From positions 30,987,432 through 31,051,431 of the forward strand of contig NC_134026.1 of assembly GCF_964204645.1 (NCBI RefSeq): 64,000 nucleotides of DNA, given 5' to 3'. Positions 22,200 through 61,215 of this stretch are shown piece by piece; the stretch's first letter is position 1, and the number at the start of each line of letters is the position of its first letter. Under the pieces are notes generated by a model, which saw only the letters and a list, made by a program, of their open reading frames with translations, did no database searches and had not been told where the DNA came from. The position numbers and the translations under genes were made by a program. Source of the stretch: Tubulanus polymorphus (Eukaryota; Animalia; Nemertea).

Positions 22200-22292
22200 A
22201 TCCAGTTTCACAGTTGTGAGCTATTGAAGTTAAAATTAGTTTATTTTCAATCAAGAGGACTCAAATCTCAACTCAGCAACTGTGGAAGTATG
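22200..22292. mobile_element. MITE family B copy (TIR ggatccagttccacagttgtgag ... ctgtggaa) in carboxypeptidase intron
   Basis: Related copies at 42481-42600 and 61105-61215. Tandemised forms at 23821-23932, 33757-34217 and 53135-53470. Confidence 0.65.
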
Positions 22293-22332
22293 CCCCGGTT
22301 AATCTGGATGAGCACGGATGATGGATACATAC

Positions 22333-22503
22333 CCGCGACAGTGTACCAGTGAGCACCGTTAGTAATACCGCCCGGGAATATCTCTCCATCGCAGCCGATT
22401 GTTGCCATCGTCGGGTGATTCGTAGCGTAAACTGACGCGATTCGTTTGAACAATGAATCGTCGGGGGAGGCGTGATATTCAGGTTCATCGTTTACGTAGC
22501 TTC
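22333..22503 (-). CDS. Carboxypeptidase exon 5/8 (SPDDSLFKRIASVYATNHPTM...FPGGITNGAHWYTVAG)
   Basis: Conserved M14B motifs SPDD and FP.GITNGA.WY. Acceptor ctattttcag, donor G|gtatgt. Confidence 0.85.
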
Positions 22504-22619
22504 CTGAAAATAGATTTCAAATCCGACCGACTAGCGACACCTGGCGATGGATCCTTGCTTGCCGCAGTAGAGAGAGTCGTTATTACAATAACCATAGCAA
22601 ATCAAAAGTTCATAAATAC

Positions 22620-22813
22620 CTCCTTTTATGTTATCGTACGGATAATTAGCGACTAGGATTCCTCCGTGTAGTTGCGCCGATAAAACAAACGGTATTTCTT
22701 TCAACCATTTCATCACAGCTACAGTTTCAGGTTGTATCGGAGGATGAGGCGTCGAGGATGGCTCGAAGATGTACGGAAAATTCCGGTTCAAATCCTCATT
22801 GTTTGCGTTATAT
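22620..22813 (-). CDS. Carboxypeptidase exon 4/8 ([11 protein letters not shown]...[21 protein letters not shown])
   Basis: Catalytic-core motifs NRNFP and [15 protein letters not shown]. Acceptor atgtttag, donor G|gtattt. Confidence 0.85.
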
Positions 22814-23265
22814 CTAAACATTGAAAATATTCATCAGAAACGTTGAATAAGAACATAGCTCAGTGCTTAGTCCTATACAGCTCAGTGCTTAAGTAAAAAT
22901 TTTGCTAGGAAATTTCAGCAAAAAGTGATCATATTATTAGATAAAATGTTTAATGTAAATACCAGGATGAGGGTTTGTAGCCGCAGTCGGACTGAGATGA
23001 AAGTCAGCACTTTTTCCTGGCATAGCACTTTTTGATTTAGGATTTTGTCTATGATAATTAAGCATCAATCAGGGCCTATCCTAGTTTTTTCCAAAAGCTT
23101 TTCAGACTTTGTCCGACAGACTCATTCGAAACCCTGTTAATAAGTCAATAGGGGTTAATATAACCTGAATTACACAGAGTGTGAATTATCAAACAAATCA
23201 AATCAGGGCAACACCATTAACAACAATAGAGGCAGTTAAAACAAACTAGAACTACGTGTAATTAC

Positions 23266-23438
23266 CTTCCGACAATGTCGTAACAATCACCTTCATGTGC
23301 AATTTCAAAACCATCAGGATTCATACTAATTAACAAGTGAATTCGAGTTGATTGAATTAATTTCGTAATCGTGGAATTTTTGCCGTATTCACTGAGCAAA
23401 TAAACAGCTAAATGTAACAATAATTCCTTCCCGACCGG
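23266..23438 (-). CDS. Carboxypeptidase exon 3/8 (PVGKELLLHLAVYLLSEY...IHLLISMNPDGFEIA)
   Basis: Matches PVGRELLL.LA.YL and IH..PS.NPDGFE. Donor AG|gtaatt. Confidence 0.8.
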
Positions 23439-23668
23439 CTGAAAAAATTCAACATTTTGAGTTTAGTTTGAATCTAGAGACAAAGAAAATCTGGTTAAAA
23501 TCAAACTCAAACTGACTTTGCCACAGTTGGGACAATTATCAGATTCATTACTCATAACCAAATGAAGACAAATACTTTAAATTGGAAATAAAAATTGGGA
23601 ATCAAAAATAGAGATGACTTCAGTGAGGACCTAAACTAGTTTGACTACCGGGTACTTGAATAGATTAC

Positions 23669-23766
23669 CTCATTTCCATGGATATTTCCGACATATTTAA
23701 TTTCTGGAATGAGTGCAGAGTGGACAGCAGGACGAGTACCGATAGCTAGAACCCATAATTCACGCC
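23669..23766 (-). CDS. Carboxypeptidase exon 2/8 (GRELWVLAIGTRPAVH...EIKYVGNIHGNE)
   Basis: Zn-binding HxxE region motif KY.GN.HGNE. Acceptor tgaacag, donor GAG|gtaatc. Confidence 0.8.
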
Positions 23767-23820
23767 CTGTTCAAAAATTTAAAAACTTAAACATTTAATT
23801 ATATACAATAATAAGAACAG

Positions 23821-23932
23821 CGGAACTGGATCCTAAACTGTGGAACTGGATCCTGAACTGTGGTACTGGATCCTGAACTGTGGAACTGGATCCTGAACTG
23901 TGGAACTGGATCCTGAACTGTGGAACTGGATC
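23821..23932. repeat. 22-bp tandem array (gaactgtggaactggatcct x ~5) of family B in carboxypeptidase intron 1
   Basis: Direct tandem copies. Same unit forms the larger array at 33757-34217. Confidence 0.8.
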
Positions 23933-23954
23933 TTGGATAGTTTTTGATACATAC

Positions 23955-24138
23955 CTTGGACGGATTTGCCAATGCTATAAATGTGAGTTGTATTCGGATA
24001 TTGTTTGTGAATATTCTGAAGTAATTGCGACATTGATGCGTATTCATGATATCCAAAATCGACAGAGATTGAATTCACCGAAATCAACAGCAAAACTGTA
24101 ACAGTATAAAACAAGCATAGCTTTGACTGTGACATCAT
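23955..24138 (-). CDS. Carboxypeptidase exon 1/8: signal peptide MMSQSKLCLFYTVTVLLLISVNS plus N-terminus ...HIYSIGKSVQG
   Basis: ATG at 24138 (minus). Hydrophobic signal peptide. Motif H.YSIGKSV.G typical of the M14B N-terminus. Donor G|gtatgt. Confidence 0.75.
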
Positions 24139-26384
24139 GAACCTGTTGAAAAAACAATAAACAGAGAAATAAATTTAATATCTTTTGAATAAGACTTCTC
24201 ATTTTCAGCAATTTTATAATCATTTTCTGATCTATAAATCGATGTGTAAAAATTAAACCAAACCCGATGAAAAAAAGGAATGACCTTTTCTATGTTCCAC
24301 AACAAAATACTATTCTCTGATGGCAATCCTGCAAATGGACTTAATTCCTTTTACCAGTAGCAGCACTACCTCAGAGTCTGCACCTGCTATCGACGTTACA
24401 TCACAGGTGGAATCAGACATGATGTTATATATAGATAATTATTGTCATCATGATAATAACTGTTTGCACTATAAACATAACTAATAATAATCTATAAGGG
24501 TCGAAACTGTATCACCATGGTGATCAATTATACATCTTGTAACGCTGTATTGTGCATTAACATAACAGCTATGATCTCTGATAATATCATCATAAAAGGA
24601 AATATCGTTATATATGGTATCAATAATATCCATCCCTGTAAACATATTATCTCTCATCTTTATGATAACAAGCTTCATTTAGGCCTATCAGTCTCCTGTA
24701 TCAACTTAGAACTCAAACATCTAAATCAATGAAAGGTCACATCAGACTCTCCTGCTGGACTCACTGGTCGGTTAGGATTCCCCACAGATGCTCATCATGA
24801 TAGCTAAGGGGTCCAAAATCAAAGATTCGACCCACAGGTATCATACCAATGAAAATTTTGTTCAATCTTTAATTAGGCCTGTTGCGCCGTACCTATAATC
24901 GTAAGCTTTTGTAATCTAATGACAGGCTGTGGTATTAAAAGCTTACCACCATTAATAGTTAATAAGTACTGATACAGACAGGTTTGGACGGGGTCCTAGG
25001 ATACTGGTTGGAATATCTAATTTTGGACCCCTCTTCTATCGATTGTGATCCCGTGGTGGGTTTTTTTCACTTGTTGAGTGACTGAACTCAATACCATACT
25101 GAGTAATTAAAGGTCATCGTCATCCACTAATCAGGGTGTTTGGAACTTAACCTACTAAAATTACTCTGTGAGGAGGAGAGATACAGCAGCTGAGGGTCTA
25201 AATGTCATCATCTCCTCAGGCTCAGCATCTTCGCGGCACATCCGTAATGTGCTGCCCTCTACAGTAAATCATATTTACTAAACGATTTCTGTTTCACAAT
25301 AACGCTGCGCTACTTCATCTATTTTGTATCTGTGTTTGTCCGTAATTATAGCTTTACTGTCAAATTCATGATACGATGGAATGTGTACCGCACGTGGAGA
25401 TGTTATTGTTTACATACTCGCATACCACGGTAAGAATACCGATTAGTGTCAAAGCCTAACCGTCAAGTGCTGCCCCTATGCAAAACATTGACGGCAAATA
25501 TGCGAACTAACATTTTACTCGCATGCCACAGTCGGGAATCACCGCGGTCGGGTTAGTTCACTGATTCGCCGTCAATGTAATATATAGAGGCAGCACGTTA
25601 CGGTAGCCAAGCTCTGACTTGACTACATAATCGGGAATAAAGATATTTCCTGATCAAATCCCGGTAGTGGGAAATTCAAAAATGTATGCTCTTACTCAAC
25701 GTGTATCTTGAAATGTTTCTTCTCTATGATAGAAATAGCTGTTGCCCAACTGATTCAGGCACCAAAATCACCAAAAATGAAAAATCGAAACATTTATTAT
25801 TTTCAAAGTCACTTCATTCCCATCTTTTATTATGATTTAAATGTTCCAAAGCATCAACAAGAAATCGATTTGGACGCATTGATTTTCCTGATATCGCTTC
25901 ACGCAATTTCCTCCATTTTTCATCTTGTTTTTCTTTCATCGACCCGTGTTCTTGCTCCTTAAAAACAAACAAGAATCAAATACAGGAAAATTAAGAGACC
26001 TTTTCAAACTCAAAACTCATCAAACTCTGGTTGGGATCTGTGGGTAACATTTCTAACTTTTACAAGAATAAGCTTATTGGACAAAATAGAGCCTTTGTTA
26101 ACAGAAATTGCTTTATTGGACAGTTTATTGGATTTATTTTTGCACAAAATTGAGCGCCCCGACGCATGCCCCTGGACCCAGTTGCCCCAAAAAAGAGATG
26201 AAAAAAGGCAAACATGAAAGATTGAATGAAAGAATTATATGGATTTAAGTGCTTCACCCTGGACACAGTTTAACAACAAGGATTTCAATTACCGGTATCA
26301 ACTCTAAAATCGATCTCATTTCCACATCAATTCAATTTAATTTTCACTTAAACTCATCAGGACCACATGAGTTGCACAGTCGTG

Positions 26385-26470
26385 GCTTCAGTCCAAAAGT
26401 GGTCCAAAAGACTGGTCTTAAGTTGTTAGATTGGCTTAAGAACTTAGTTGGTTTTAGACTGGTCTTAAAG
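26385..26470. mobile_element. MITE family A fragment
   Basis: agtccaaaagtggtccaaaagactggtcttaagttgttagattgg... shared with the other family A copies. Confidence 0.6.
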
Positions 26471-27797
26471 TCTAAGCTATGCAAATGACCCCTGAATTCA
26501 AAGATTCTAAACTTTCTTACCCGAGTTAGATATGGAACGGCTAAATATTCTCTATTTTGTTCTTCTAATAAAAGTTGATTGACAGCAGCTCTTTTCTGTG
26601 AGATTGTAACTGGTTCATATAAACGATGCTTTCTGCAAAATAGAATAATTCATCAGTTCATATCAAGCAGATCAGTCATTCACTGCAGAATGAGTACCCT
26701 CCCTCAGGCCTCACGACGGTTGGTCCGGTTTTACTTACCCAGTCCAGATGTTGCCTGGCATGATCTTTGCAGGAACATATGGATCTCTAATTTTAGATTT
26801 CACAGTTTTTAGAAGATACTGTGTCAGACGCATCTGAAAGTGAAAATGGAGTGAATTTGTTGAATAAAATGGACGAATTGATTCGATTGGTGCTGGTTGT
26901 TTGACCTTCTTGCTTCGTTTTGACTTACTTTTGTTAATGTGTGCGTCTGTTTCTGTGTTCGAGAAGTTTTTGCCTCTGTTGTTGTTGTTTATTTATTTCT
27001 GAAACAACACGATAGTCCGCGGTTGTCTGTACACTGTCCTTAATCACAGTTATAATTAGCAATCACACCGAAACGAATTTAATTGAATTGGTTTTACCCA
27101 CGTAACCTTGGCCATACTTGCTTGCCAGAGCTGCTACTGGCAAGCGAGTAATAGATTAGTTTTCATATTTACCGCTAGCGTTATATTTAGGGGCAGCACC
27201 TGACAGTCCAAATCAGACTAGTATATTGTATCGTTGTTGTCTAAAACTGATCAAATTCAAATATATTACTTATTTTTAGACTGAAAAAAGAAAATTATTT
27301 TCTTAATCTGGCTGATAATTACAACAAAAATCATTTTTGTGTTAATTGTATTGCAGAAAAACATCAGTACAACCAACTCTTTCCACAAACCAGTTTTCCA
27401 TTACCAAATTTTTGACTGAAGAAAAATAGATTTTTAGATTTCATAAATCTTGAATTTTCAATCTCTAGACACTTTTGAAATTCAGCTTCCTCGGAATGGC
27501 AGTATGATAAAAGCAACTCTTACAACAGTGGAACTCTGGATCCATGGCAACAATAGACTGGCTCCAAAAATATCTCTTCATAAAACAACTTTCAGGCATG
27601 GATTTAAATTGTGACAATCTCAAAATATTTTTCGTTTTATTAGTAACAGAAAGTTTAGAAGTACAATAATGATGGCATAATGCCCCCAAAACAACATATT
27701 ACACATCTCTTACCCATCCCAGCTCCGACTACCCTGGAATTCGCGTAGAACCTCAGAGAGAAGTTACTGGTCCTAGGAGTTCCGAAGCAAACGAAGT

Positions 27798-28428: not shown

Positions 28429-28725
28429 CTAGCAAATATAAATGATGAGAATTTTTGTAGAGGAGCCAGTGTCAACTTAGAATCACATCAGTAAACATGG
28501 AAACAGGTAGTTATGCGGTGTAGCAGGTTTAACTGATATTAGAAATCACAAGTTTCGGCAACTTGTGCATAGAGTTGCTTAATCAGGTCAATGAGTTCAA
28601 TCAATGGAGATTCGAAAGTATCATTCACTACTACATGAATACTGTTGTTTTACTCATTTACCTGACAAAGCTACTCTATTAGACTAGTAGCGAAAGCTCG
28701 CAATCTCAGATCAGATAATCGCAAA

Positions 28726-28890
28726 GGGATCATTCATTTATTACGTACGCATAAAATTTGAATTTTTCTACCCACCCCTCCCCCTCTGTACGCAAAATCG
28801 GCCATTTTTTCATATACATTAAGCATTACAGTACGCAATTGCACTGACCCCTCCCCCTCCCCTAATGCGTACGTAATAAATGAATGACCC
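28726..28890. mobile_element. Palindromic MITE family C (~165 bp, TIR gggatcattcatttattacgtacgca)
   Basis: Perfect ~26-bp terminal inverted repeats. Second copy at 50809-50973 in the SLC2A13-like intron. Confidence 0.8.
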
Positions 28891-28936
28891 TAAATCAGTT
28901 AACCTACAATTACTATCTATTTTCACACTTATTTAC

Positions 28937-29979: not shown

Positions 29980-30069
29980 CTGAATTCAAAATAAAGTAAA
30001 AAGAATGAATTCTATTTTTCGATAAAAACAGAATGAATGATACTATTGAGAGTGATCGGTATTTCTTAC

Positions 30070-30164
30070 CTTCAGTTGAGTTCGTGTTCTCTTTGGAAAC
30101 ATTTTCTGAATCAGCGAGAAATCTGTACCTAACGTACTGATTGCTTTATAGAATCTTTTAGTTT
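30070..30164 (-). CDS. BDP1: BDP1 exon 6/10 (SANT/Myb domain: ETKRFYKAISTLGTDFSLIQKMFPKRTRTQLK)
   Basis: Close match to BDP1 SANT E.E.F..A.S.VGTDFSLI.QLFP.R.R.EIK. Acceptor tttgcag, donor AAG|gtaaga. Confidence 0.85.
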
Positions 30165-30285
30165 CTGCAAATGAAATTCAAGAGTTTCGATAAGTAGGTA
30201 AAACATGGCAAGGTTTTGATGCAATCAGGTTCGATTCCCGGTCGAGGGAGGTACGACCAGGTTCAAACCCCTATATCAAATATAC

Positions 30286-30422: not shown

Positions 30423-30462
30423 CTAGAAATGTACATCACATTACATCATCAGTACGCACAGG

Positions 30463-32495
30463 TAGGCTCACCTAGATAGGCACAGGTAGGCTTATCTAGA
30501 TAGACACTGATAGGCTTATCTATCTAGATAGGCACAGGTAGGCTTATCTAGATAGGTACAGGTAGGCTTATCTAGATAGGTACAGGTAGGCTTATCTAGA
30601 TAGGCACAGGTAGGCTTATCTAGATAGATAGGCACAGGTAGGCTTATCTAGATAGGTACAGGTAGGCTTATCTAGATAGGCACAGGTAGGCTTACCTAGA
30701 TAGGCACTGATAGGCTTATCTATCTAGATAGGCACAGGTAGGCTTATCTAGATAGGTACAGGTAGGCTTATCTAGATAGGCACAGGTAGGCTTACCTAGA
30801 TAGGCACTGATAGGCTTATCTATCTAGATAGGCACAGGTAGGCTTATCTAGATAGGCACAGGTAGGCTTACCTAGATAGGCACTGATAGGCTTATCTATC
30901 TAGATAGGCACAGGTAGGCTTACCTAGATAGGCACAGGTAGGTTTATCTATCTAGATAGGCACAGGTAGGTTTATCTAGATAGGCACAGGTAGGCTTATC
31001 TAGATAGACACTGATAGGCTTATCTATCTAGATAGGCACAGGTAGGCTTATCTATCTAGATAGGCACAGGTAGGCTTACCTAGATAGGCACAGGTAGGCT
31101 TATCTAGATAGACACTGATAGGCTTATCTATCTAGATAGGCACAGGTAGGCTTATCTAGATAGGCAGAGGTAGGCTTATCTAGATAGACACTGATAGGCT
31201 TATCTATCTAGATAGGCACAGGTAGGCTTATCTAGATAGGCACTGATAGGCTTATCTATCTAGATAGGCACAGGTAGGCTTATCTAGATAGGTACAGGTA
31301 GGCTTATCTAGATAGGCACAGGTAGGCTTACCTAGATAGGCACTGATAGGCTTATCTATCTAGATAGGCACAGGTAGGCTTATCTAGATAGGTACAGGTA
31401 GGCTTATCTAGATAGGCACAGGTAGGCTTACCTAGATAGGCACTGATAGGCTTATCTATCTAGATAGGCACAGGTAGGCTTATCTAGATAGGTACAGGTA
31501 GGCTTATCTAGATAGGCACAGGTAGGCTTACCTAGATAGGCACTGATAGGCTTATCTATCTAGATAGGCACAGGTAGGCTTATCTAGATAGGTACAGGTA
31601 GGCTTATCTAGATAGGCACAGGTAGGCTTATCTAAATAGACACTGATAGCCTTATCTATCTAGATAGGCACAGGTAGGCTTATCTAGATAGGTACAGGTA
31701 GGCTTATCTAGATAGGCACAGGTAGGCTTACCTAAATAGACACTGATAGGCTTATCTATCTAGATAGGTACAGGTAGGCTTATCTAGATAGGCACAGGTA
31801 GGCTTATCTAGATAGACACTGATAGGCTTATCTATCTAGATAGGCACAGGTAGGCTTATCTAGATAGGTACAGGTAGGCTTATCTAGATAGGCACAGGTA
31901 GGCTTATCTAGATAGGCACAGGTAGGCTTATCTAGATAGGTACAGGTAGGCTTATCTAGATAGGCACAGGTAGGCTTATCTAGATAGGCACAGGTAGGCT
32001 TATCTAGATAGGTACAGGTAGGCTTATCTAGATAGGTACAGGTAGGCTTATCTAGATAGGTACAGGTAGGCTTATCTAGATAGGTACAGGTAGGCTTATC
32101 TAGATAGGCACAGGTAGGCTTATCTAGATAGATAGGCACAGGTAGGCTTATCTAGATAGGTACAGGTAGGCTTATCTAGATAGGCACAGGTAGGCTTATC
32201 TAGATAGATAGGCACAGGTAGGCTTATCTAGATAGGTACAGGTAGGCTTATCTAGATAGGCACAGGTAGGCTTATCTAGATAGGCACAGGTAGGCTTATC
32301 TAGATAGATAGGCACAGGTAGGCTTATCTAGATAGGTACAGGTAGGCTTATCTAGATAGGTACAGGTAGGCTTATCTAGATAGGCACAGGTAGGCTTATC
32401 TAGATAGGCACAGGTAGGCTTATCTAGATAGATAGGCACAGGTAGGCTTATCTAGATAGGCACAGGTAGGCTTATCTAGATAGGCACAGGTAGGT
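30463..32495. repeat. Giant minisatellite: ~2.03 kb of a 24-bp unit ataggcacaggtaggcttatctag, ~85 copies, in BDP1 intron 4
   Basis: Variants ataggtacagg..., atagacactgataggcttatctatctag. ORF 31828-32139 (YLDKPTCT...) is an artefact. Confidence 0.95.
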
Positions 32496-33190: not shown

Positions 33191-33448
33191 AACCCTTCAG
33201 TGCGTCTACACCGCAGTGCGGTGTATGAATCAGTAATAAGTAATTAGTTTTTGTTTTTGTTTTTATTTTTTTAAATGGCAGCACCTGTCAAACATAGTGA
33301 AATTCTAGTAACTAACGATACACCGCGCCGCGGTGTAGACGCACTCTAGTGGTATTCCTGTTATTCAGCACACTAGGGCGGATTTTTTCAAAATTTTCAA
33401 ATTATCTCCAGCACTATAGGGTATTGATTAGTCAGCACTGAAAGGGTT
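33191..33448. mobile_element. MITE family D (TIR aacccttcagtgcgtctacaccgc ... gtgtagacgcac ... cactgaaagggtt) in BDP1 intron 3
   Basis: Terminal inverted repeats visible. Related copy at 59888-60216. Internal gacaggtgctgcc motif also at ~25560 and ~27185. Confidence 0.7.
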
Positions 33449-33473
33449 AAGCAGATTTTGAAGCGATTCTTAC

Positions 33474-33592: not shown

Positions 33593-33756
33593 CTGGAAAA
33601 CAAAAAATGCAAAATATGAAATTTTGGGAATTCTCTTTCACGCGCTTTCTTATCATAGAAACTAACTTTGTACATGTAATTTCACTAGATTTCAAAGTTT
33701 AAAGTCCACAGTCGATTCAAGTATAAGCCATTTTGAAGAGTAATTTGAGACATCAG

Positions 33757-34217
33757 GAACTGAATTCTGAACTGTGGAACTGGACCCTGAGCTGTGGAAT
33801 TGAGTCCAGAACTGTGGAACTGTACCCAGAACTGTGGACCTGGATCCAGAACTGTGGAACTGGACCCTGAACTGTGGAACTGGACCCTGAACTGTGGAAT
33901 TGAGTCCAGAACTGTGGAACTGAGTTCAGAACCGTGGAACTGAGACCAGAACTTTGGAACTGAGTTCAGAACCGTGGAACTGAGTTCAGAACCGTGGAAC
34001 TGAGTCCAGAACTGTGGAACTGAGTCCAGAACTGTGGAACTGAGTTCAGAACTGTGGAACTAGTTCCAGAACTGTGGAACTTGATCCAGAACTGTGGAAC
34101 TGGGTTCAGAACTGTGGAACTGTATCCAGAACTGTGGAACTGGACTCAGAACTGTGGAACTGGGTCCTGAACTGTGGAACTGGACCCTGAACTTTGGAAC
34201 CCTGAACTGTGGAACCT
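33757..34217. repeat. 22-bp satellite array (gaactgtggaactggaYcctga x ~21) in BDP1 intron 2
   Basis: Family B unit tandemised. Copies diverge (ggacc/gagtc/gagtt variants). Confidence 0.9.
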
Positions 34218-34232
34218 GGTGTAAATATTTAC

Positions 34233-36272: not shown

Positions 36273-36461
36273 GTAACTATCACTATAAACTCTAGTTAAT
36301 GCTTCAGTATCTTTCATCATCATCAATATCATGGACGGTTAGAGGTCTATTGATGTGCGGCTCTTTTGGCAATAAATAGACATGATTAAGGTGACTGGAT
36401 TTCTAAAATCTTTCTGCTTTATCTAAAAGTGCCTTAGTCATTTCTTCTGCCTCTGGGGCCG

Positions 36462-36785
36462 GTTCCATAGTCATTGCTTAGACTTAAGACCAGTCTAAAA
36501 CTATCTTAGTTCTATAGCCAATCTAACAACTTAAGACCAGTTTAGCTTATTTTGGTTTTATAGCCAATCTAACAACTTAAAACCAGTTTAGCTTATTTTG
36601 ATTTATAGCCAATCTAACAACTTAAAAACCAGTCTAAAACTACCTTAGTTCTATAGCCAATCTAACAACTTAAAAACCAGTCTAAAACTACCTTAGTTCT
36701 ATAGCCAATCTAACAACTTAAGACCAGTCTTAAGATTTAAGACCACTTTCGGGCTTAAGTCTCGACTATGGAACCAGCCTCTGAT
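36462..36785. mobile_element. MITE family A, complete-looking copy with inverted termini (ggccggttccatagtcattgcttagacttaag ... cttaagtctcgactatggaaccagcc) in TMEM17 intron 3
   Basis: Terminal inverted repeats ~30 bp. Internal tandem of the ccaatctaacaacttaa(g/a)accagt unit. Confidence 0.8.
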
Positions 36786-42480: not shown

Positions 42481-42600
42481 AACTGGAGCCAATTCAACAG
42501 TTGTGAGTTGGAGTAAACTCAGAGTTAAAAAGTTAGTTTATTTTCAATGAGCAGACTCAAATCTTAATTCACACTGTGGAACTGGGTCCTGTTGGATCCT
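42481..42600. mobile_element. MITE family B copy in TLCD1 intron 3
   Basis: cagttgtgagttggagtaaactcagagttaaaaagttagtttattttcaatgagcagactcaaatcttaattcacactgtggaactgggtcc. Shares an internal core with 22200-22292 and 61105-61215. Confidence 0.7.
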
Positions 42601-42656
42601 TGTTTACCTGATCCCCTTTGCTGAAAAGTGATTAAGTGTTTTTTCTTGTGTTTTAG

Positions 42657-42828
42657 GTGATGGCTTGTTTTAGTTTTAGTTTATTCGCGCAGAAATACAT
42701 CACATATAGTTTAGTGTCGCTATTGGTTGAAGTAAACAGTATATTCCTGCACTCACGACAACTGATGCAGATTGCTAACATTTCACGCTCATCCATGACT
42801 TATCGGTTAAACAGTTTAGTCACAGTTG
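42657..42828 (+). CDS. TLCD1: TLCD1-like exon 4/5 (...SLLVEVNSIFLHSRQLMQIANISRS...)
   Basis: Matches TLCD1 LLVEVSNIFLTIRMMMKISN. Acceptor ttttag, donor G|gtaagt. Confidence 0.8.
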
Positions 42829-42867
42829 GTAAGTCATTCAATTCAGTCTAGAAAATATGTGATAATC

Positions 42868-43245
42868 CACAAGCAGTATTGGACCTGGTGGCATGCTCCT
42901 TGCTGCACCAGCAGTATCGCACCAGGTGGGGTGCTCCATGCTGCACCATCAGTATCGCGCCAAGTGGCGTGCTCCATGCTGCACCAGCAGTATCGCACCA
43001 GGTGGGGTGCTCCATGCTGCACCAGCAGTATCGCGCCAAGTGGCGTGCTCCATGCTGCACCAGCAGTATCGCACCAGATAGCGTGCTCCTTGCTGCACCA
43101 GCAGTATCACACCAGATAGTGTGCTCCATGTTGCACCAGCAGTATCGCACCAGGTGGGGTGCTCCATGCTGCACCAGCAGTATCGCACCAGGTGGGTAGC
43201 TCCATGCTGCACCAGCAGTATCGCACCAGGTAGCTATCGTCCCAC
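42868..43245. repeat. ~39-41-bp tandem repeat x ~9 (cagcagtatcgcaccaggtggggtgctccatgctgcac) in TLCD1 intron 4
   Basis: Direct copies. Overlapping ORFs on both strands (42826-43255) are artefacts. Confidence 0.9.
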
Positions 43246-45207: not shown

Positions 45208-45777
45208 ATGTCTACGATTTGGATTTTGATGTTTATGGCGCTTCATTTTAATGTCAACGATAGTGCCTACATCAAAAGAACTGACACCTGTCAGGATATA
45301 ACGATTCCGATGTGTAAAATAGGATTGTCATACAATCAAACAAAAATGCTGAATGTCTTCAATCGGAACCAAGAAGAAGCTCTTTGGGACTTGTTTTTTT
45401 GGCCGCGGATAAATTGCAGCGATTCCCTGAATGAATTTCTATGTGCACTATACGCACCGCCGTGTTCCTCGGAACCGCCGTGTAAATCGCTATGCGAAGA
45501 AGTTACAAAAGCGTGTGAAGCTGCGATGAATAGCCTGGGATTTCTTTGGCCACACAAACTGAGGTGCGAAAATTTCAAACGGGAAACATCTTGTATCGGA
45601 GCCCGAGGTATTGAAAAATCTCAAAATCACGGACAGCTGAGTGTGATGACATTGATGGATCTGGAAAATCGTGTTGATTTCCTCGAATCACGAATAGAAA
45701 ACAGTGAAACATTTCGCGATAAAGTAAAAAATTTAGAGCAGCGAATTGAAGCTCTTGAACGCATTTTATTGAAGTAA
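45208..45777 (+). CDS. Secreted Frizzled-type cysteine-rich-domain protein with C-terminal coiled coil, paralog A (189 aa, intronless)
   Basis: Signal peptide MSTIWILMFMALHF. Ten Cys in FZ-CRD spacing (C..IPMC...GLSYN.T.M.N...Q.EA...CS..L..FLC..YAPPC...PC.SLCE..C....WP..L.C..F). Heptad-rich C-terminus [41 protein letters not shown]. Confidence 0.8.
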   Translation: MSTIWILMFMALHFNVNDSAYIKRTDTCQDITIPMCKIGLSYNQTKMLNVFNRNQEEALWDLFFWPRINCSDSLNEFLCALYAPPCSSEPPCKSLCEEVTKACEAAMNSLGFLWPHKLRCENFKRETSCIGARGIEKSQNHGQLSVMTLMDLENRVDFLESRIENSETFRDKVKNLEQRIEALERILLK

Positions 45778-46230: not shown

Positions 46231-46893
46231 ATGTCTCCAATTTGGATTTTCACGTTTTTTATGTTTTATTTTGGCGTCGGTGAAAGTTTTTTCAGGACAA
46301 GTGAAAACTGTGAGAATATACAGATGCCACTGTGTAAAGTAGGATTGTCGTACAATCAAACAAGAATGCCGAATATGTTTCATCATCAAAACCAAGAAGA
46401 AGCAGGTCTGGAGTTACATCAGTTTTTTCCGTTGGTTAAGGTGAGATGCAGTCCGAATTTAAAGGAGTTTCTATGCGCTATGTACGCACCACCTTGTTCT
46501 TCTGAACCACCGTGTAAATCACTCTGTGAACTTGCAAGAAATGGTTGTGAAACCCTCATGAACAGATTCGGATTTCAATGGCCAGAAAAAATGAACTGTA
46601 ACCATTTTCGAGATAATGAACCTTGTATCAGTGGAACTGCGACTCCAGCACCGCCAACAACACAGGAGCCGTCGACTCCACCACCAACCGAGGAGCCCTC
46701 TACTCCAGCACCAACCGAGGAGCCTTTGACTCCTGTGACGTCGAATAAACCGTTGAGCGTGAAATTAATGGATTTAGAAAATCGCGTTGAATTCCTCGAA
46801 TCGCTGATAGAAAACAGTGAAACATTTCGCGATAAAGTGAAAAATTTAGAACAGCGAATTGAAGCTCTTGAACGTATTTTATTGAAGAATTGA
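46231..46893 (+). CDS. Secreted Frizzled-CRD plus Pro/Thr linker plus coiled-coil protein, paralog B (220 aa, intronless)
   Basis: Signal peptide [17 protein letters not shown]. Same 10-Cys [27 protein letters not shown] mucin-like linker. C-terminal 40 aa nearly identical to paralog A. Confidence 0.8.
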
Positions 46894-47934: not shown

Positions 47935-48140
47935 TTGGGGCCAGTTCCACAGTCATGTTTTGGCTACAAGACTAACTTCTATAACCGATCTAGCAACTTA
48001 AGACCAGTCTAAGCTCATTTTAGTTCAATCACCAATATAACAACTTAAGACCAGTCTAAGCTCATTTTGGTTATATATCCAACCTAACAACTTAAGATGA
48101 TAAGTCTTAAGATTTAAGACCACTTTTTGGACTTTTGGTC
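47935..48140. mobile_element. MITE family A copy
   Basis: ggggccagttccacagtcatgtttt... aacttaagaccagtctaagctcatttt x2 ... cttaagatttaagaccact. Confidence 0.7.
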
Positions 48141-48667
48141 AAGCTTTACTTTTGGTAACAGCTTTACTTCATCACTCGCATTGTACCAATGACAAAGAGA
48201 TTGTACCTTTCCAGGATTCCAATTTCTAGCTGGTTAATAAAACAAATCTATTGTAGACCTACAGTACATAGACATAATCATTATACACAATATAAAATAA
48301 TACTTCATACATTAGCTGTAAACACGAATATCGCACAAATAATATAGTACAGTATAACATAAAGGCAATATAGAAATCCCAAACTAAGAATGAAAAGAGT
48401 CTAAAATGTCTCCATGAGTTTATTATTTAGTTCAGCACATCAACTTTATCTAAATCGCCATCTTCAAGAATAAGTGTTTTCACAACTAGCCGAATAGTCA
48501 TCTGCTGGAATACCAGAGTAATACAAGGAATTCAGCACTATCTCATGAAGAGTGCTAGTAGGATCTATCTCCAGGAAACATTGTGGACTTTTTAAATTCT
48601 TAGTATCGGATTATCATTTTTAACAACATGAACTCAGAGTGTTTTAAACAATATTACTCCGATAAAT

Positions 48668-48788
<121 letters not shown>

Positions 48789-49722: not shown

Positions 49723-50011
49723 CTACAAATACAAGCAAAATAAATATCCAACAATTACGTAAAGAAGGGCATTATAAGTGACACTTTGAGACAGGAGACT
49801 GAATTAAAGACAACTGCTCAGCTCTAGGGCAAGCAGAGTCTGTACATGTGCCTAAGAATAACGTTATAAAGTATTAGGCTGCAGGATTCAGTTCCGTCGT
49901 TGAGCACAAACTACAGTTAACTCTTCCACTGAGTTAACATCCAGTCAAACTGTGGAACTGAGTTCAGAACTCCTTCAAAGTAAATAGATGAACATAAGTA
50001 ACTAAACTTAC

Positions 50012-50134: not shown

Positions 50135-50298
50135 CTACAAAAAATAACAATCAAATTCAGTTAAAATCATTGTCAACTGGATTCAGTTCTCAGTTTTAAC
50201 AGTTTAAAAACATTGAAAATGAACTGATTCTGACTCAGACTGCGGAACTGGAAAAAGATTTTGAAAGAACTCTTGATTCGAAATAATTGTAAATTCAC

Positions 50299-50629: not shown

Positions 50630-50808
50630 CTGAAATATCAATGAAAATCATGCGTTAGATTTTTGATCCTTTACAGGGAACAGTTTCACAAAAAAATCTC
50701 CTTGTTAAACTCTTATTTCATTTCATTTCCTCATTAATCTAGTTCTAATCGATTTAAGAGTTAATCATTTTTGTGATGAGACTGGATCTATAGGAAATAC
50801 GGTACATT

Positions 50809-50973
50809 AGGGATCATTCATTTATTACGTACACATTAGGGTAGGGGAAGGGGTCAGTGCAATTGCGTACTGTAATGTTTAATGTATATGAAAAAATGGC
50901 CGATTCTGCGTACATGGGGGGAGGGGGGTTGAAAAAGTCAAATTTCATGCGTACGTAATAAATAAATGATCCC
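50809..50973. mobile_element. Palindromic MITE family C, second copy (in SLC2A13-like intron)
   Basis: Same TIR gggatcattcatttattacgtac as 28726-28890. Confidence 0.8.
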
Positions 50974-53074: not shown

Positions 53075-53134
53075 CTAGAAATAGAAGAGTTCCACAGGTC
53101 TGCGTTAAAAATACGATTCTACTTCAGTCAGCAG

Positions 53135-53470
53135 GGGGTGGGTTAAGGGGTCCTGAGTTCACTCACAGTGGAACTGGATCCTAACTCTAACTCACAACAG
53201 GTGGATCAATGGTGTTGCATTATGCTCATTTTGGATTAAGTTTAAAATGTGTGGAGTTTATGCCCTGAATCAGGATCAAGTTTCATAGTTGTGAGTTCAG
53301 AGTAAACTCTAAATCAAAACTGTGGAACTGGATCCAGAGTTCAGAGTAAACTCTAACTCACAACTGTGGAACTGGATCTTGAGTTCAGAGTTAACTCTAA
53401 CTCACAACTGTGGAACTGGATCCTGAGTTCAGAGTTAACTCTAACTCACAACTGTGGAACTGGATCCTGC
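53135..53470. repeat. Family B cluster: ~44-bp unit (gagttcagagttaactctaactcacaactgtggaactggatcct) x ~4 plus partial copies, in SLC2A13-like intron 2
   Basis: Direct tandem copies. Same TIR sequence as MITE family B. Confidence 0.85.
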
Positions 53471-53566
53471 ATTTTTTGAATGGCCAAATGCAGTAAAGGG
53501 AGATCCACGACGACCGCTGATCTGGTCTAGAGCAACAACCTGTGCTACAGGTGGAATTCTAGTTAC

Positions 53567-53683: not shown

Positions 53684-53799
53684 CTTCAAATAGAATAAAT
53701 ATCTTATGATAAGTTTTAAATCCTGCGCTCAGCTGTAGAGTTCAACTGTATGAGATGCTACAATACTCTGTAATACTACGGTAGACTCGACTTGAGGAA

Positions 53800-53940
53800 C
53801 CAGGGGCCAGTTGCACAGTCGTGACTTAAGTCCAAAAGTGGTCTTAAATCTTAAGACTGGGGTTAAGTTGTTAGATTGGCTATAGAACTAAGATATTTTT
53901 AGACTGGGCTTAAGTCTAAGCCATGACTATGCAACCGGCT
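53800..53940. mobile_element. MITE family A copy in SLC2A13-like intron 1
   Basis: gaaccaggggccagttgcacagtcgtgacttaagtcc...ggttaagttgttagattggctatagaac...aagccatgactatgcaaccggctcc with inverted termini. Confidence 0.75.
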
Positions 53941-53958
53941 CCGGTTTATATAACTTAC

Positions 53959-56252: not shown

Positions 56253-56759
56253 TTCGCTCTTAATTCGCGTGAAATGAAAATCTTCCGATTTATGTTTCAA
56301 ATCCCCTCAAAAATTCCCTGAAAAGACACGAAATAAAAACCAAAACGTATTTTAAGATTTTGTTTGTTACGCATTTTGAAATGTGAGCCCCATTCACGCG
56401 AGTCTACTGCGGCAGTTGTGTATCCCTACCTTTCTCCTTCGTCGATGTCATTTTATGATAATCCTTTACAGGTTTATTCTCTCTTATTCACTTTGTAAAA
56501 TTCATACTTTATAAGACTAGACGACTAACATAAAGATAGTCTCAAAAAATAATCCGTAATGTGTGCAGTCAGTACGTGTTTTGTATGTGACACTGACACA
56601 ATATTAATCAGTTGGTAACATATGTAACCCACCGGTACGCAGCACGCTTATTCAATATTACATCTATCACTCTGTATAAAAATCCCACAATAATTTGATT
56701 AAAAGAAGTCCGAAATGTTAATGATTTATTCAAAGTTTCAACTAAATCCTAATAGTCTG

Positions 56760-56920
<161 letters not shown>

Positions 56921-58294
56921 CTGTGTTTACTCGTATATATTCAAAGTCAACATTCCGTTTCTAATCCCAGTCACAGTTCCACAAAACAAGGCACGATATT
57001 TGTAATACTGCACACGATTTACGTTATGCGGAGAGTTGATCAACACGAGAAAATAAACTACTGTTGAAATATACAGTCTTCATAAAGTCATCTTCAGGAA
57101 TATTAGCGTTATCACACAATTATTAGATATATATGTAAATATCTCAATCCAGAACAAAGGGACAAATTGAGTAAATAAGATGTGATTATACAAACTAAGG
57201 GTACATACAACATACGAACACTTAACAAACTAAACACATTTCAAGCAGAGCAAACTGGAGAACTATCTTTTTATTCTTATTGTGGGGTTCTTATATTATC
57301 TTTACAAAATGGACGGAGTGGTAATCAACCTATCAGTGTCATACTGTGTTAGTTCAGGGAGTACCGGTACATACTATGGTCATTGTCGGGATATCTGGTG
57401 TCTTTTTAAATATAGATCATGATCTCCTTTTCTATGCCCACTTTATGCAATTTTTCAGAATTAAGAATTAACTATAACTAAAGTGAAGTATACCCTATGA
57501 AGCTCTATTAACAGGAATCGAGAATGATTAGTTGATTATCTGTTTTTGGTGCCTTTTTTGTTCTTTTCTGTTGGTACTATGGTTGCAAATCAAATTTGGA
57601 CTGGATCCATCCTGCTCACAGGTCTGGGGTCTGAGGGTCTTAACAATTCTTAACAAAGAAAGATTAACTGGCAGCAATAGCCATTTTAGACAGAAATACT
57701 TTTTTGAATAATTTTCGAAAAAATTGTGCCCATTTTCTTTTTCAGAAAATTCCCTTAACAGAATCCATTAGGCTACACACATGTCATTACTACGGAAACA
57801 ATAATTACCATGGAAATAAAATCAGGACTTTTTCGGAATTAAAACAGAAAAGTTGAATTGGGAAAAAATAAGAGCTTTACCTGAATCTGAACAGTCACCG
57901 GTTAATATAAAATCTATCTCATCTTCATTAGACATCATCATCGCATCAACAACTTCAAATAATCATCTGAAATGAAATGAGAAAATTAAAACTTGTCCGA
58001 TGTTGGGGCCATTCACAGGGGCAGGGGCCGAGTGGTAGCCTTGTATCTAGCTGTTGTTTTTTAGATCTCATCAGATCATCTGGTAGTAATCAGAAATCAG
58101 TTTAGGCCTACTATAGACCAGAGTAGGGGGCACTTCTAGACTTTGTAACATTTGTTGGACCCAATATGTTATGAAATTGGATTTTATTAATGGCACCAAT
58201 ATCGATCATCATCTCATACTAATATATTATTATGGACAAGGTGCTTATTAATCAACGTACAGATGATGCACACAGCACAATCCAATAAATACTC

Positions 58295-58390
58295 GCCAAA
58301 CGGCACAAGAGGTGAGGGTGCGAGAGGTGAGGGTGCAAAGGTGGGGGCACGAGAGGTGAGGGCGTGAGAGGTGAGGGCGCGAGAGGAAAT
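58295..58390. repeat. GC-rich 12-bp imperfect tandem repeat (gagaggtgagggYg x ~7)
   Basis: Direct copies. Accounts for part of the dubious ORF 58214-58687. Confidence 0.7.
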
Positions 58391-59183
58391 GTTTGGGAGA
58401 GTGAAGGGTACTACAGAGAAAAGAAGGACGACAGATCGCGGCTGCTTATGATAGATAGTGATGCTGCTGCTTTCCTTGCTTGGTTGTTGTTTGTTAGAAT
58501 AGATGAAACGTGGAGATGTTTTTCGTTTCGGTGATCCGCCTTGCTTTATCCTCCATGGGCCTACGGTTTTGGCCTTAGTATCTGCTTGAATTTGATAAAA
58601 ATCATAATATGAGATATTGACCTCGATATATTTCAGCTTGGTCACAACAGAAATCAGAGGAGAGGAGAGTGAATCAAATCGCTTCATCGATTCATTATCA
58701 TTAAATTAGACATACGCAACGACCTTCAGCCGGGATACAAGTGCGCATATTGTGCAGAGTTGGATTATCTCGGAGCCAACCCACTTCGGCGACACTCGGA
58801 ACAGTCCAAACCAAAGACTGGTTACGTGTAGAAAACGGTAACCAGTCTCTCCAAACTCGTATCGCCACCTAGTGTCGACCGAGATATACGCGGATTTTTC
58901 AAGGATGGAAAGAAAGTTTTGAGGATAAAATCGTCAAAAAAGAAATATACTGAAATTGATAGAAGCCAAAGTTGCAGCCAGCGCCCGATCCCGGAGGAGG
59001 AGAACACCGACACCGTGTTCATTTAAAGAACAAAATCTGACTCTAATTTATGGCCTATCATCAATCAGCTTCTGCTGGCTGGCCTTGTTTTTGACGTTGC
59101 TGGGTCGGGAGGCTGTGGGGAAGGACAGTGAATGTAGGTTGTAACTGAGTTATAATGGATTGTAGTAAACAGCGTCACTTGTT

Positions 59184-59251
59184 ATGAAAATGTTCCAGTT
59201 AAGAAGAATCGGTTTACCATCAACCATAGAACGTGTCACAAACTTGATGAG
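59184..59251 (+). CDS. TCF19: TCF19-like (FHA plus PHD finger) exon 1 (MKMFQLRRIGLPSTIERVTNLM)
   Basis: Human TCF19 starts MLPCFQLLRIGG. Donor AG|gtaatg. Phase matches exon 2. Confidence 0.65.
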
Positions 59252-59589
59252 GTAATGCTGGAGAACTTATTGATTGACAAGTTTAAGTATTGAAGTCTCT
59301 ATTAAAAACTTAACGTGACGGGTACCGTATCAGAGTTGTAGTAGGTACTGTTTAAAGCAGTTTTTGATTGCTGCTGTTAATTGACGATTTTTTACAGCTA
59401 ACATTGCAGCGGTGAATTTACTTCAATTTTTTCAAAACATGATATTTAAAAAAATTTTTTTTGCTTCTGACGCTGCACTTCCCACGCCACTGCTTTAACT
59501 CTGGTTAAGAGCCCTAAGGCCTAGTGGGTGTGAGTTGCTTCATACTGACTGATTAACTGACACTACTGTTTGTTTTTAATCCCTTACAG

Positions 59590-59773
59590 TTTAAATGAAT
59601 CTGAAATATCAGTCGGACGAAGTTTAGAAAACGATATCTATTTAGATTCGTCGCAGCTGAAAAACTTCATCTCGAGAAATCATGCGAAATTCACACGATC
59701 TATTATCGATGAGAAAGTTTATTACGTTTTGACTGATTTGAGTTTAAACGGAACTTACGTTAATGATGTGAAG
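59590..59773 (+). CDS. TCF19: TCF19-like exon 2 (FHA domain core: SVGRS.ENDIYLDS...ISRNHAKF...YYVLTDLSLNGTYVNDVK)
   Basis: FHA signature GR....D..L.....SR.HA......Y.L.DL.S.NGT.VN. Acceptor ccttacag, donor AAG|gtaatt. Confidence 0.85.
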
Positions 59774-59887
59774 GTAATTTTCAAATCTTGATTTAACGCT
59801 TTCAGCGCTGACTAATTGAATACCCGTAAAATGCTGGAGATAATTTGAAAATTGTACCCTACTAGTGGGTAAGATAATGGACATGCC

Positions 59888-60216
59888 GCTTTAGCATCTA
59901 CACCGCTGTGCGGTGTATCCTTAGTTACAAGTATTTCACTATTTTTGACAGGTGCTGCCATCTTTCAATAAGGATAAGAAATGATCACTAATAGCGAAGT
60001 CATCACTGAGTTATACACTGCACTGTGGTGTAGACACACCGCAGTGCTGTGTATTCTTAGTTACAAATATTTCACTATTTTTGACAGGTGCTGCTACGTT
60101 TCAATAAGGATAAGAAATGAACACAAATAACTATCAATACACCAGTCATCGCTGATTTATACACCGCGCTGTGGTGTAGACACACCGCGCTGCGGGGTAG
60201 ACGCACTGAAAGGGTT
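59888..60216. mobile_element. MITE family D copy (internal ~120-bp duplication) in TCF19-like intron 2
   Basis: catctacaccgctgtgcggtgtatcc...gacaggtgctgcc... x2 ...gtagacgcactgaaagggtt. Same termini as 33191-33448. Confidence 0.7.
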
Positions 60217-60255
60217 AATTGAACTGTATCTGATAGAAATGCAATAAATATTCAG

Positions 60256-60393
60256 ATGTTCTGCGATGAATTTCAGCTCGCCGGTCCATGCACGCTCGTT
60301 GAGGGAGATGTTATTAAGTTCGGCCACGTGCAAGGTTTTAAAATGAAAAAAGGAGCTTACTGTCCTCAACCGCTGACTGAGTTCACATTCCTG
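60256..60393 (+). CDS. TCF19: TCF19-like exon 3 (FHA C-terminal strand ...LVEGDVIKFGHVQGF...)
   Basis: Acceptor attcag, donor CTG|gtaaga. FHA terminal motif L..GD.I.FG. Confidence 0.7.
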
Positions 60394-60558
60394 GTAAGAG
60401 TTAGACTCCTCTCCGATGAGAAGAGTTGTAAGGGAGGAGCCATCTCTCTCGGTTTGTTATGTCTAAATAATTTGAATACTTTGAAAAGTAACGCTTGAAT
60501 AAGGTTAAAATCTTCATTCGATATGAAATGAATTATTTGTTATTTCGATTATTTTCAG

Positions 60559-61001
60559 TACAGTGAAGTTAAATCTGCGAAAAACGGACTAAAAACCGAA
60601 TCGACTAAAAATATTTGGGATATTCCCGTAGAATTACCGCCGATTATTCCTAAAGTTCACATGTACAATGACTTCGTAAATTCAACACGACCTTCACCTT
60701 CGTCGGACGTGAAACACGCGATTATACCCCATTCTACACCTCTGATCGATCTGCAGAATGTTTATAAACATGAAGCTACAGGTTCTAGTCCGCTACAACT
60801 CGGTAGTCCGGTGATACCTTTATTAGATACGGTACCGAGTAGTCCAGTGATACCGCTATTAGACACACTACCCGATAGTCCGGTCATACCAGTATTAGAC
60901 AGATTAAAACACGAATCAATACCTGTGGAAATTAATGATTTATATCAACCGAAGTGTGCTATATCTCTGAATGACAAAGATAATCCCACTAAAGATCTAC
61001 G
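60559..61001 (+). CDS. TCF19: TCF19-like exon 4 (Pro/Ser-rich linker with SPVIPLLDT repeats)
   Basis: Acceptor ttttcag, donor CG|gtaagt. Matches ORF 60661-61005 frame. Confidence 0.7.
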
Positions 61002-61104
61002 GTAAGTTTAGTCTGGAAAAACCCCAGGGCCCAAATCGATCTACGATAAACTGAATCAATGAAGAAATTAAATCGATTTCAGAGTTAAACCTTTTTGTGA
61101 AACT

Positions 61105-61215
61105 GGGCCCTGGGCCCGGTTCCACTGTTGTGAGTTAACTCCGAGTTAAAATCAGTTCATTTTCGATGTTTTAACTCTAGAGTCAAATTTAACTCAGAAA
61201 TGTGGAACTGGATCC
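61105..61215. mobile_element. MITE family B copy in TCF19-like intron
   Basis: ggttccactgttgtgagttaactccgagttaaaatcagttcattttcgatg...aaatgtggaactggatcc. Confidence 0.7.

Follow-up and report, generated by a model that had tools for sequence, protein, structure and literature searches.

Three short tandem arrays in the 64,000-nt window (the whole stretch of DNA analysed here) are probably head-to-tail amplifications of the 3' end of family B, a group of MITEs with a putative source of the PHIS/NuwaI type. On local evidence the arrays are transposon-terminus-derived minisatellites. Their lengths are 120, ~475 and 176 bp, and the label 'satellite' in the initial annotation overstates arrays of 0.5 kb or less. 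Transposon-born tandem repeats are a recognised source of satellites, and the route from transposon to tandem repeat is already well known; this locus adds a compact example. Within 40 kb it holds, all anchored at the terminus, an intact element, a mini-element, a tail-to-head junction, a 10-nt re-duplication and the three arrays. If this extends genome-wide, it could help to test whether inverted repeats generally begin to turn into satellites through a duplication anchored at the terminus.

Family B copies and their ends

The 16-mer CTGTGGAACTGGATCC is the motif common to the dispersed inverted-repeat elements of family B, which measure ~80-108 bp, and the three arrays. Allowing up to three mismatches it gave 38 matches against 0.30 expected from shuffles, a more than 100-fold enrichment. 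The copies at ~22198, ~42483 and ~61110 were homologous to one another (blastn E 1e-8 to 5e-10) and returned nhmmer E values of 5e-23 to 5e-29 with a profile whose own model includes all three; their inverted termini fold as hairpins (z = -6.0, -2.4 and -2.7). Family B has the terminal inverted repeats of a MITE, with arms of 27-29 nt that are 79-89% complementary, and also the small, non-coding and dispersed character, with at least eight copies of 65-108 nt, devoid of ORFs, within 45 kb (Table 1). It is an old, non-coding, non-autonomous family of cut-and-paste transposons. Its ends read 5'-(CWG)GRKCCAGTTCCACAGTTGTGAGTT...AACTCACAACTGTGGAACTGGMYC(CWG)-3', and the inverted repeat would reach two bases further than first described (CW...WG).

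The core motif occurred only at 22228, 61144 and 17168 (minus strand), and with an indel at 42523. The core that the initial annotation ascribed to four dispersed copies is present at 22200, 42481 and 61105 and absent from the element at 49885, which matched at its ends only and gave no significant whole-length profile match (E 1.2). That annotation had also overlooked the copies at 50177-50254 (minus), ~17132-17232 (minus), 61611-61762 (minus), 16729-16799 and 53271-53337.

Directly 3' of the copy at 42483..42591, ~10 nt of the terminus is re-duplicated (42592-42602, TTGGATCCTTG), and the fragment at 61070..61112 abuts the best-preserved copy tail-to-head, with one CTG common to both (61107-61112).

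Table 1. Family A and B elements and tandem arrays in the window
Position	Strand	Feature	Support
16729..16799	+	Mini-element, two inverted repeats only	nhmmer E 2e-3
17132..17232	-	Degenerate family B copy, core recognisable	nhmmer E 6e-5 for 17136-17193
17231..17504	+	Family A, 3.6 internal 47-bp repeats	
22197..22295	+	Family B copy with core; 3' end degenerate	nhmmer E 5e-23, in model
23816..23935	+	Six 20-nt units, AACTGTGGAACTGGATCCTG	Own parse; TRF
33748..34221	+	~23 units of 20 nt	Own parse; TRF
36453..36783	+	Family A, 5.3 internal 48-bp repeats, CTG...CTG flanks	
42483..42591	+	Family B copy with core, CTG...CTG flanks	blastn, nhmmer
47935..48130	+	Family A, 2.2 internal repeats, 3' end lost	
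49882..49971	+	Related element, B-type ends (CAG...CAG), without core	
50177..50254	-	Family B copy with core	nhmmer E 1e-14
53140..53212	+	Two to three decayed units, like 44-mer units, same orientation	
53271..53337	+	Mini-element: CAG, 5' inverted repeat, 3' inverted repeat, CAG	E 2e-7
53294..53469	+	Four 44-nt units; units 3 and 4 identical	TRF 4.0 copies, 94%
53801..53944	+	Family A, single internal unit, CAG...CGG	E 4e-3
61070..61112	+	3' half of another family B copy, 5'-truncated	3'-end motif at 61094
61110..61217	+	Best-preserved family B copy, CTG...CAG, 29-nt inverted termini	79% complementary, z -5.97, E 5e-29
61611..61762	-	Divergent relative, similar ends (TCGGTTCCACGGT ... ATTGTGAAACTGG)	nhmmer E 1e-4

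Tandem arrays matching the 3' end

TRF recovered the arrays where they had been annotated, with a short period of 20 rather than the 22 bp first given (23822-23932, 5.6 copies, 96% matches; 33756-34200, 22.2 copies, 85% matches). The 20-nt unit consists of the element's last 17 nt plus CWG, and CWG stands between all units. The smaller array stops exactly at the element terminus (..GGATCTTG, followed by gatag). The larger is built of blocks of variant units (GGACCC, GAGTCC, GAGTTC and others) that differ mostly by transitions. A hypervariable GGATCC centre in this array was considered and rejected, as the extreme cell-count test was inflated by block inheritance. Complementarity between adjacent units, a sign of hairpin-templated changes, was not significant there (p 0.40).

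The 44-nt unit likewise consists of the element's last 41 nt plus CWG, and its array ends at ..GGATCCTG, followed by catttt. Four such units had been annotated at 53135-53470; they are present, with a clean extent of 53294-53469, and the stretch at 53140-53212 holds decayed units. A 5' inverted repeat (53271-53293) directly precedes the array, and unit 1 is the last 44 nt of the mini-element at 53271..53337, whose inverted repeats are 86-89% complementary (hairpin z -4.86). The 44-mer array is therefore one mini-element with three extra 3' halves.

When aligned, units of both lengths ran colinear with the dispersed copies at their 3' ends and stopped at the same base, and the right edges of all three arrays are the element terminus, ..GGATC(C/T)TG, followed by unrelated flank. 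Together with the motif enrichment and the blastn matches, this bears out the proposal that arrays and ~100-bp element are related, the repeated unit being the terminal sequence of the element.

Sequence identity alone gives no direction for the 20-mers, and a pre-existing 20-bp minisatellite could in principle have been captured as an element end. Nothing specific speaks for this order of events, which we regard as extremely unlikely: the terminal 17 nt recur in two otherwise unrelated families, as expected of a transposase recognition site; the units take in the flanking CWG and run no further than the terminus; and the 44-mer unit includes subterminal MITE sequence (85% over 40 nt).

Origin of the arrays

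Only for the 44-mer array, which has kept its junction with a 5' inverted repeat, is the direction from MITE end to array, as claimed in the initial annotation, directly supported. No MITE body was detectable beside the 20-mer arrays (p 0.055-0.97), nor any homology to the body of the 49885 element, so that only an identity of 17-20 nt points to their origin from a resident MITE. Candidate remnants of a 5' inverted repeat upstream of the arrays were short matches (shuffle p 0.002-0.008) and were rejected, since one sits within a coding exon of a sugar transporter and an exon intervenes between another and its array.

The novel junction CWG/AACT is identical in both 20-mer arrays and at the 3' end of the 49885 element, which argues against independent local events. 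In addition, that 3' end plus 4 nt (49948-49971) is identical at 24/24 positions to GAGTTC-variant 20-mer units. Given both observations, a single seeding event followed by spread or exchange appears no less likely than separate seeding at each locus. The novel junctions showed no consistent microhomology.

The same features would suit arrays that are the repeated termini of a separate element, either a foldback or Tetris-like non-autonomous transposon or an autonomous parent, making MITE and arrays siblings. The 20-mer arrays would then have no need of an adjoining MITE body, the junction and derived variant common to two arrays and the 49885 end would be inherited mobile termini, and the use of one terminus by several families is already evident from A and B. 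A precedent exists in Tetris and DAIBAM of Drosophila virilis (PMC4079207), two non-autonomous families that share no more than the last part of the inverted repeat, that were probably moved by one autonomous element and whose inverted-repeat-associated repeats also form stand-alone tandem arrays. In Tetris, however, repeats of ~220 bp lie inside long inverted repeats in both arms (foldback), and kb-size arrays are found in beta-heterochromatin (PMC4079207), whereas the present arrays repeat the extreme terminal 20 or 44 nt, span at most 0.5 kb and lie in one orientation in introns. Tandem repeats in both arms, in inverted orientation, are not a feature of these arrays: all units are on the plus strand and no inverted partner array was found anywhere in the window. 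The upstream 5' inverted-repeat candidates, equalled by a match in a coding exon, lend no trustworthy help, and a mini-MITE visibly underlies the 44-mer array. We therefore consider a separate element unlikely.

For amplification of the family B 3' end, the first duplication would have been anchored at the terminus and would have come about through template switching or slippage of replication, perhaps while a transposase cut was under repair. Slippage or unequal exchange may then have extended the arrays, yielding blocks of variant units, and the 20-mer form probably arose once before it spread or was exchanged between loci. Should CWG be a target-site duplication, each 44-nt unit would include the flanking duplicate, and the 44-mer array would have formed after insertion.

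A stronger role for the transposase has a slim chance of being correct. Repeated cleavage and repair would copy the terminal recognition sequence and CWG into tandem functional ends, leaving the arrays as by-products. This would explain the exact terminus start of the three arrays, the re-duplication at 42592-42602 and the junction at 61107. Satellites would then arise from inverted repeats by a route that is driven by the transposase and anchored at the terminus, and the arrays could serve as alternative ends or transposase sinks.

Serial insertion would account for the junction at 61107-61112 and its single common CTG, as well as for the CWG between all units: a CWG target recreated at the element end would lead to tandem dimers, and later 5' truncations and unequal exchange to arrays. 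Dimers formed by double insertion through insertion preference are documented (PMC5932611), and the tail-to-head junction resembles them, but its left partner is a fragment of ~40 nt and the arrays are made of truncated ends, not whole elements. Uniform 20-nt and 44-nt units would require identical truncations every time, units lacking a 5' end could not transpose alone, and the flanking W of the 61110 copy differs from side to side. Taken together, this makes serial insertion very unlikely.

Amplification of the 3' end also differs from other MITE-derived tandem repeats, which are documented in reviews (PMC6947457; PMC8268682). As these reviews summarise, Xstir and other examples (Hikosaka and Kawahara 2004; Izsvak et al. 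1999) likewise consist of tandem repeats from MITE sequence, and the mechanisms put forward depend on inverted-repeat stem-loops during replication. There, whole or central MITE segments are repeated between the inverted repeats. In contrast, here the outermost end alone is repeated and the array reaches the terminus.

Transposon source and intronic setting

Family A has the terminus GGGGCCGGTTCCATAGTC, and the outer 17 nt are common to families A and B; the same transposase therefore probably moved both. CW preceded the hexamer at 16 of 22 ends, compared with ~11% expected from base composition. W was identical on both flanks in four of five informative elements, and one of the five pairs showed the inverted type. 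At three right ends the sequence is CAA or AAA. CWG could be a target-site duplication or part of the inverted repeat instead. Outside CWG no target duplication of 2, 3 or 8-10 bp was seen, nor one of TA, TTAA or TWA.

The most likely source of both families belongs to the NuwaI type within the PHIS (PIF/Harbinger-ISL2EU-Spy) superfamily. The defining features of NuwaI are a CWG duplication together with a GGG start; in a mollusc, the oyster C. gigas, it is represented by four families (PMC4482050). Like these, the elements described here have CWG on both flanks and an inverted-repeat length in range, and family A begins with GGG (CWG/GGGCCAG...). Family B differs in starting GAT or GGC, and CWG is here a putative duplication, read from the flanks. 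Autonomous NuwaI elements have genes for a DDE transposase and a Myb/SANT protein (PMC4482050); neither a DDE_Tnp_4 transposase nor a Myb/SANT partner ORF was found within the window. As a lead only, GGATCCAG fits the Spy terminal motif GGANNNNG (PMC4122938). Spy-type insertion between AAA and TTT without duplication was rejected, the flanks being CW/WG; beyond these, AA/TT occurred in a minority of copies only. Metagenome contigs scanned for exact matches to 25 nt of the inverted repeat and to a 20-mer dimer of 30 nt yielded no further copies, look-ups of two genes of the window by exact protein sequence gave no record, and a literature search for the motif returned unrelated primers only. 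If the pattern extends genome-wide, two MITE families would gain a provisional superfamily, the CWG-duplicating PHIS elements.

Family A, whose centre contains between 1 and 5.3 units of 47-48 bp, resembles bivalve MITEs that contain tandem repeats, such as DTC84 of Donax trunculus (PMC3879986), which are likewise short and non-autonomous and vary in the copy number of a central array. DTC84-like (pearl-like) elements carry repeats of ~160 bp and a microsatellite (PMC3879986), and in oysters such arrays are part of Helentron elements (PMC8268682). Unlike these, the termini of families A and B are clearly inverted and flanked by CWG.

Pfam matches on flanking exons place all element copies and arrays in introns, as initially annotated, within carboxypeptidase, BDP1, TLC, sugar-transporter and FHA genes. 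The TLC-domain exon at 42657-42848, downstream of the 42483 copy, gave a weak match (E 0.0034), and the array at 33748..34221 lies within an intron of BDP1, identified by its Myb_DNA-bind_7 exon. In protein comparisons the best named matches of DPH4 were from molluscs, at 31-48% identity, and a carboxypeptidase query of 376 aa found matches of 45-53% in all animal phyla. Intron flanks were unrelated between copies. Introner-like elements were rejected as an identity, the element ends lying 12-45 nt inside the introns and not coinciding with splice sites.

Functional intronic arrays under selection, for example as protein-binding or splicing-regulatory sites, might be suspected from the little variation in the AACTGTGGAACTG part of the units and from the position of the array at 23816..23935 within carboxypeptidase intron 1, at 22 nt from its donor site. 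The probability of this is close to negligible: the uneven variation is largely due to block amplification of a few variant units, the arrays are in unrelated genes and in both transcriptional orientations, and Rfam returned no family at the gathering threshold. Nothing indicates a host function, and the arrays appear to be tolerated intron filler. For annotation, the intronic repeats described here are neither genes nor regulatory RNAs. The elements can make up much of a short intron: the copy at 22197..22295 takes up ~62% of a carboxypeptidase intron of ~150 nt, and that at 50177..50254 about half of a sugar-transporter intron of ~146 nt.

Array units are terminal sequence of the element

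The relationship between dispersed elements and tandem arrays proposed in the initial annotation is real and was correctly recognised, with corrections due to the period, the array limits, the copy at 49885 and the list of copies. Each repeat unit consists of sequence from the end of the element, all arrays are anchored at that terminus, and a mini-element underlies one of them. On joint alignment the units followed the 3′ ends of the dispersed copies colinearly and closed on the same final column, which relates the arrays to the ∼100-bp element as had been claimed. TRF returned a period of 20 instead of 22 bp for 23822-23932 (5.6 copies, 96%) and 33756-34200 (22.2 copies, 85%). For the array placed at 53135-53470 the period of 44 was reproduced, but its limits were not (TRF span 53292-53469, 4.0 copies, 94%).

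When phased from the array edges, the units read AACTGTGGAACTGGATC plus CWG (W = A/T; 20 nt) and AGTTCAGAGTWAACTCTAACTCACAACTGTGGAACTGGATC plus CWG (44 nt), which correspond exactly to the last 17 and 41 nt of the element, each with CWG added. The right edge of every array is the element terminus, and the sequence beyond is unrelated. A 5′ inverted repeat at 53271-53293, 86-89% complementary to the units, opens the 44-mer array; we therefore read this locus as a mini-element (CAG...CAG) followed by three more 3′ halves, the last two of which are identical and therefore the youngest. The same habit, element sequence restarting directly after the terminus, was observed in three other features: behind the 42591 end ∼10 nt are duplicated anew, a ∼40-nt 3′ fragment meets the 61110 copy tail-to-head and has one CTG in common with it, and decayed units occupy 53140-53212.

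The initial duplication would have had one breakpoint at the terminus, and arrays may have grown afterwards by slippage or unequal exchange. Tandem repeats of MITE origin have been explained in the literature by stem-loops that the inverted repeats adopt while DNA is replicated (Hikosaka and Kawahara; Izsvak et al.; in PMC8268682) or, alternatively, by tandem dimers arising through insertion preference (PMC5932611). Either could apply to these arrays; consistent microhomology singling out one mechanism was not found. The phenomenon itself is already known, many conversions of transposons to tandem repeats having been catalogued, MITE-derived cases included (PMC6947457 Table 1). Two points merit genome-wide pursuit: how regularly the arrays are anchored at the terminus, and the likely affiliation of the elements with a CWG-type group.

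Two element families with common termini

Searching for CTGTGGAACTGGATCC with up to three mismatches gave 38 occurrences against 0.3 expected. Three family B copies (22197-22295, 42483-42591 and 61110-61217) are homologous end to end, have inverted termini of 27-29 nt and fold into hairpins well above shuffled controls. The internal core previously ascribed to four copies is present in these three but not in the 49885 copy, which has the ends only; core-bearing copies at 50177-50254(-) and about 17132-17232(-) had been overlooked. Setting the 22 recognisable ends in register yielded the conserved terminus GRKCCAGTTCCACAGT, preceded by CW at 16 ends, where base composition predicts about 11%.

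Inside family A elements lies a 47-48-bp tandem repeat whose copy number varies (1, 2.2, 3.6 and 5.3), making this family itself a MITE that contains tandem repeats. It has only the terminal 17 nt in common with family B (GGGGCCAGTTCCACAGTC). When non-autonomous families that are otherwise unrelated have termini in common, this usually marks the work of one transposase, and on this ground a single transposase probably served both. No target duplication outside CWG was visible at the element flanks. W was identical in the left and right CWG of four of five informative elements, as a 3-bp target duplication predicts and opposite to the prediction of an inverted repeat, although five pairs prove nothing.

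NuwaI belongs to the PIF/Harbinger-ISL2EU-Spy (PHIS) superfamily and has CWG duplications, a usual GGG start and inverted repeats of 12-61 bp; the oyster Crassostrea gigas harbours four of its families (PMC4482050). The candidate elements resemble it in their CWG flanks and in the GGG with which family A starts after CWG. The Spy group has the terminus GGANNNNG, compatible with GGATCCAG here, and the target AAA|TTT (PMC4122938); a Spy-type assignment was rejected, as the element flanks do not fit this target. Judged by these sequence features, a CWG-type PHIS affiliation is likely, and a NuwaI-like identity is the leading assignment, with about an even chance of being correct.

Origin of the 20-mer arrays

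Seeding by a MITE terminus is directly supported for the 44-mer array, on its mini-element. Beside the two 20-mer arrays no significant match to an element body was found, and the sequence upstream of them shows no relationship to the 49885 element. Short inverted-repeat-like matches upstream were rejected as 5′ remnants: one falls within a coding exon of a sugar transporter, and between another and its array there is an exon. A 12-nt match to the inverted repeat (AGTTCCACAGGT) at 53088-53099, in coding sequence of a sugar-transporter exon and directly at its 3′ splice site, most likely arose by chance and shows how short motifs can mislead.

Both 20-mer arrays have a novel junction, CWG|AACT, in common with the 49885 3′ end. 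There, 49948-49971 is identical (24/24) to GAGTTC-variant units from the middle of the 33748 array, a variant three transitions from GGATCC. Since the same junction is unlikely to have arisen at three loci through separate local events, it is more economical that the 20-mer form had one origin and was then dispersed together with the element family or through ectopic exchange. Less probably, the 20-mer arrays belong to another element whose termini are themselves repeated, like Tetris/DAIBAM (PMC4079207); against this, inverted arrays are completely absent.

Variant units of the 33748 array occur in blocks, and variation is focused on the four middle positions of the hexamer GGATCC. Striking raw cell counts were discounted as mostly amplification of a few variant units, and when neighbouring units were tested for compensatory changes of the kind that hairpin templating would leave, the result was negative. 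We regard this array as an ordinary minisatellite.

Intronic setting and neighbouring features

Every copy and array lies between exons, in agreement with the initial annotation. In introns 22172-22321, 50151-50296, 53124-53561 and 23771-23949, elements and arrays of families A and B make up 50-75% of the sequence; several short introns thus consist mostly of these repeats, which largely set intron length here. A splice donor lies 22 nt from the start of one array. Intron creation by the elements was rejected, as their ends do not fall on splice sites. No Rfam family matched, and nothing points to a host function.

Features of the window
Feature	Position	Strand	Remark
Peptidase_M14 (carboxypeptidase) exons	23950-24138, 23265-23462, 22531-22821	minus	
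BDP1-type Myb_DNA-bind_7 exon	30046-30177	minus	
Sugar_tr exons	between 49.6 and 54.0 kb	minus	
TLC-domain exon	42657-42848	+	weak match
FHA exon	59561-59788	+	
Family A elements	17231-17504, 36453-36783, 47935-~48130, 53801-53944		fragment near 26364
Mini-elements	16729-16799, 53271-53337		two inverted repeats and no more
Divergent relative	61611-61762		
Tandem repeat	105-14385		~4.79-kb unit, three copies, 96.7-97.6% identity
Minisatellite	30456-32494		about 81 copies of 24-bp GCACAGGTAGGCTTATCTAGATAG; BDP1 intron; higher-order periods 76 and 100 bp
Minisatellite	42868-43231		38 bp, 9.6 copies; starts about 20 nt past TLC-domain exon
Dispersed repeat	28726-28893, 50807-50973	inverted	92% identity; unrelated to families A/B
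Dispersed repeat	33200-33450, 59793-60039	inverted	74% identity; unrelated to families A/B
Microsatellites	48666-48786, 56757-56923		(ATG)40, (CTGC)42

The window is eukaryotic and bears animal genes with introns; it has a G+C content of 36% and numerous micro- and minisatellites. The ∼4.79-kb unit holds no ORF of at least 90 aa, the edges of the large BDP1 minisatellite carry no family A or B termini, and the 38-bp minisatellite, with several reading frames open, gave no Pfam match. The carboxypeptidase query (376 aa) was 45-53% identical to matches from all phyla; the best named relatives of DPH4, a single-exon gene, are molluscan, with only 31-48% identity. These matches mark the host as an invertebrate lacking near relatives among the sequences searched. 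Two neighbouring, probably single-exon genes (45208-45777 and 46231-46893; 69-88% nucleotide similarity) encode similar secreted Fz (frizzled cysteine-rich) domain proteins (Pfam E 4e-21 and 6e-30) with a common C-terminal coiled segment.
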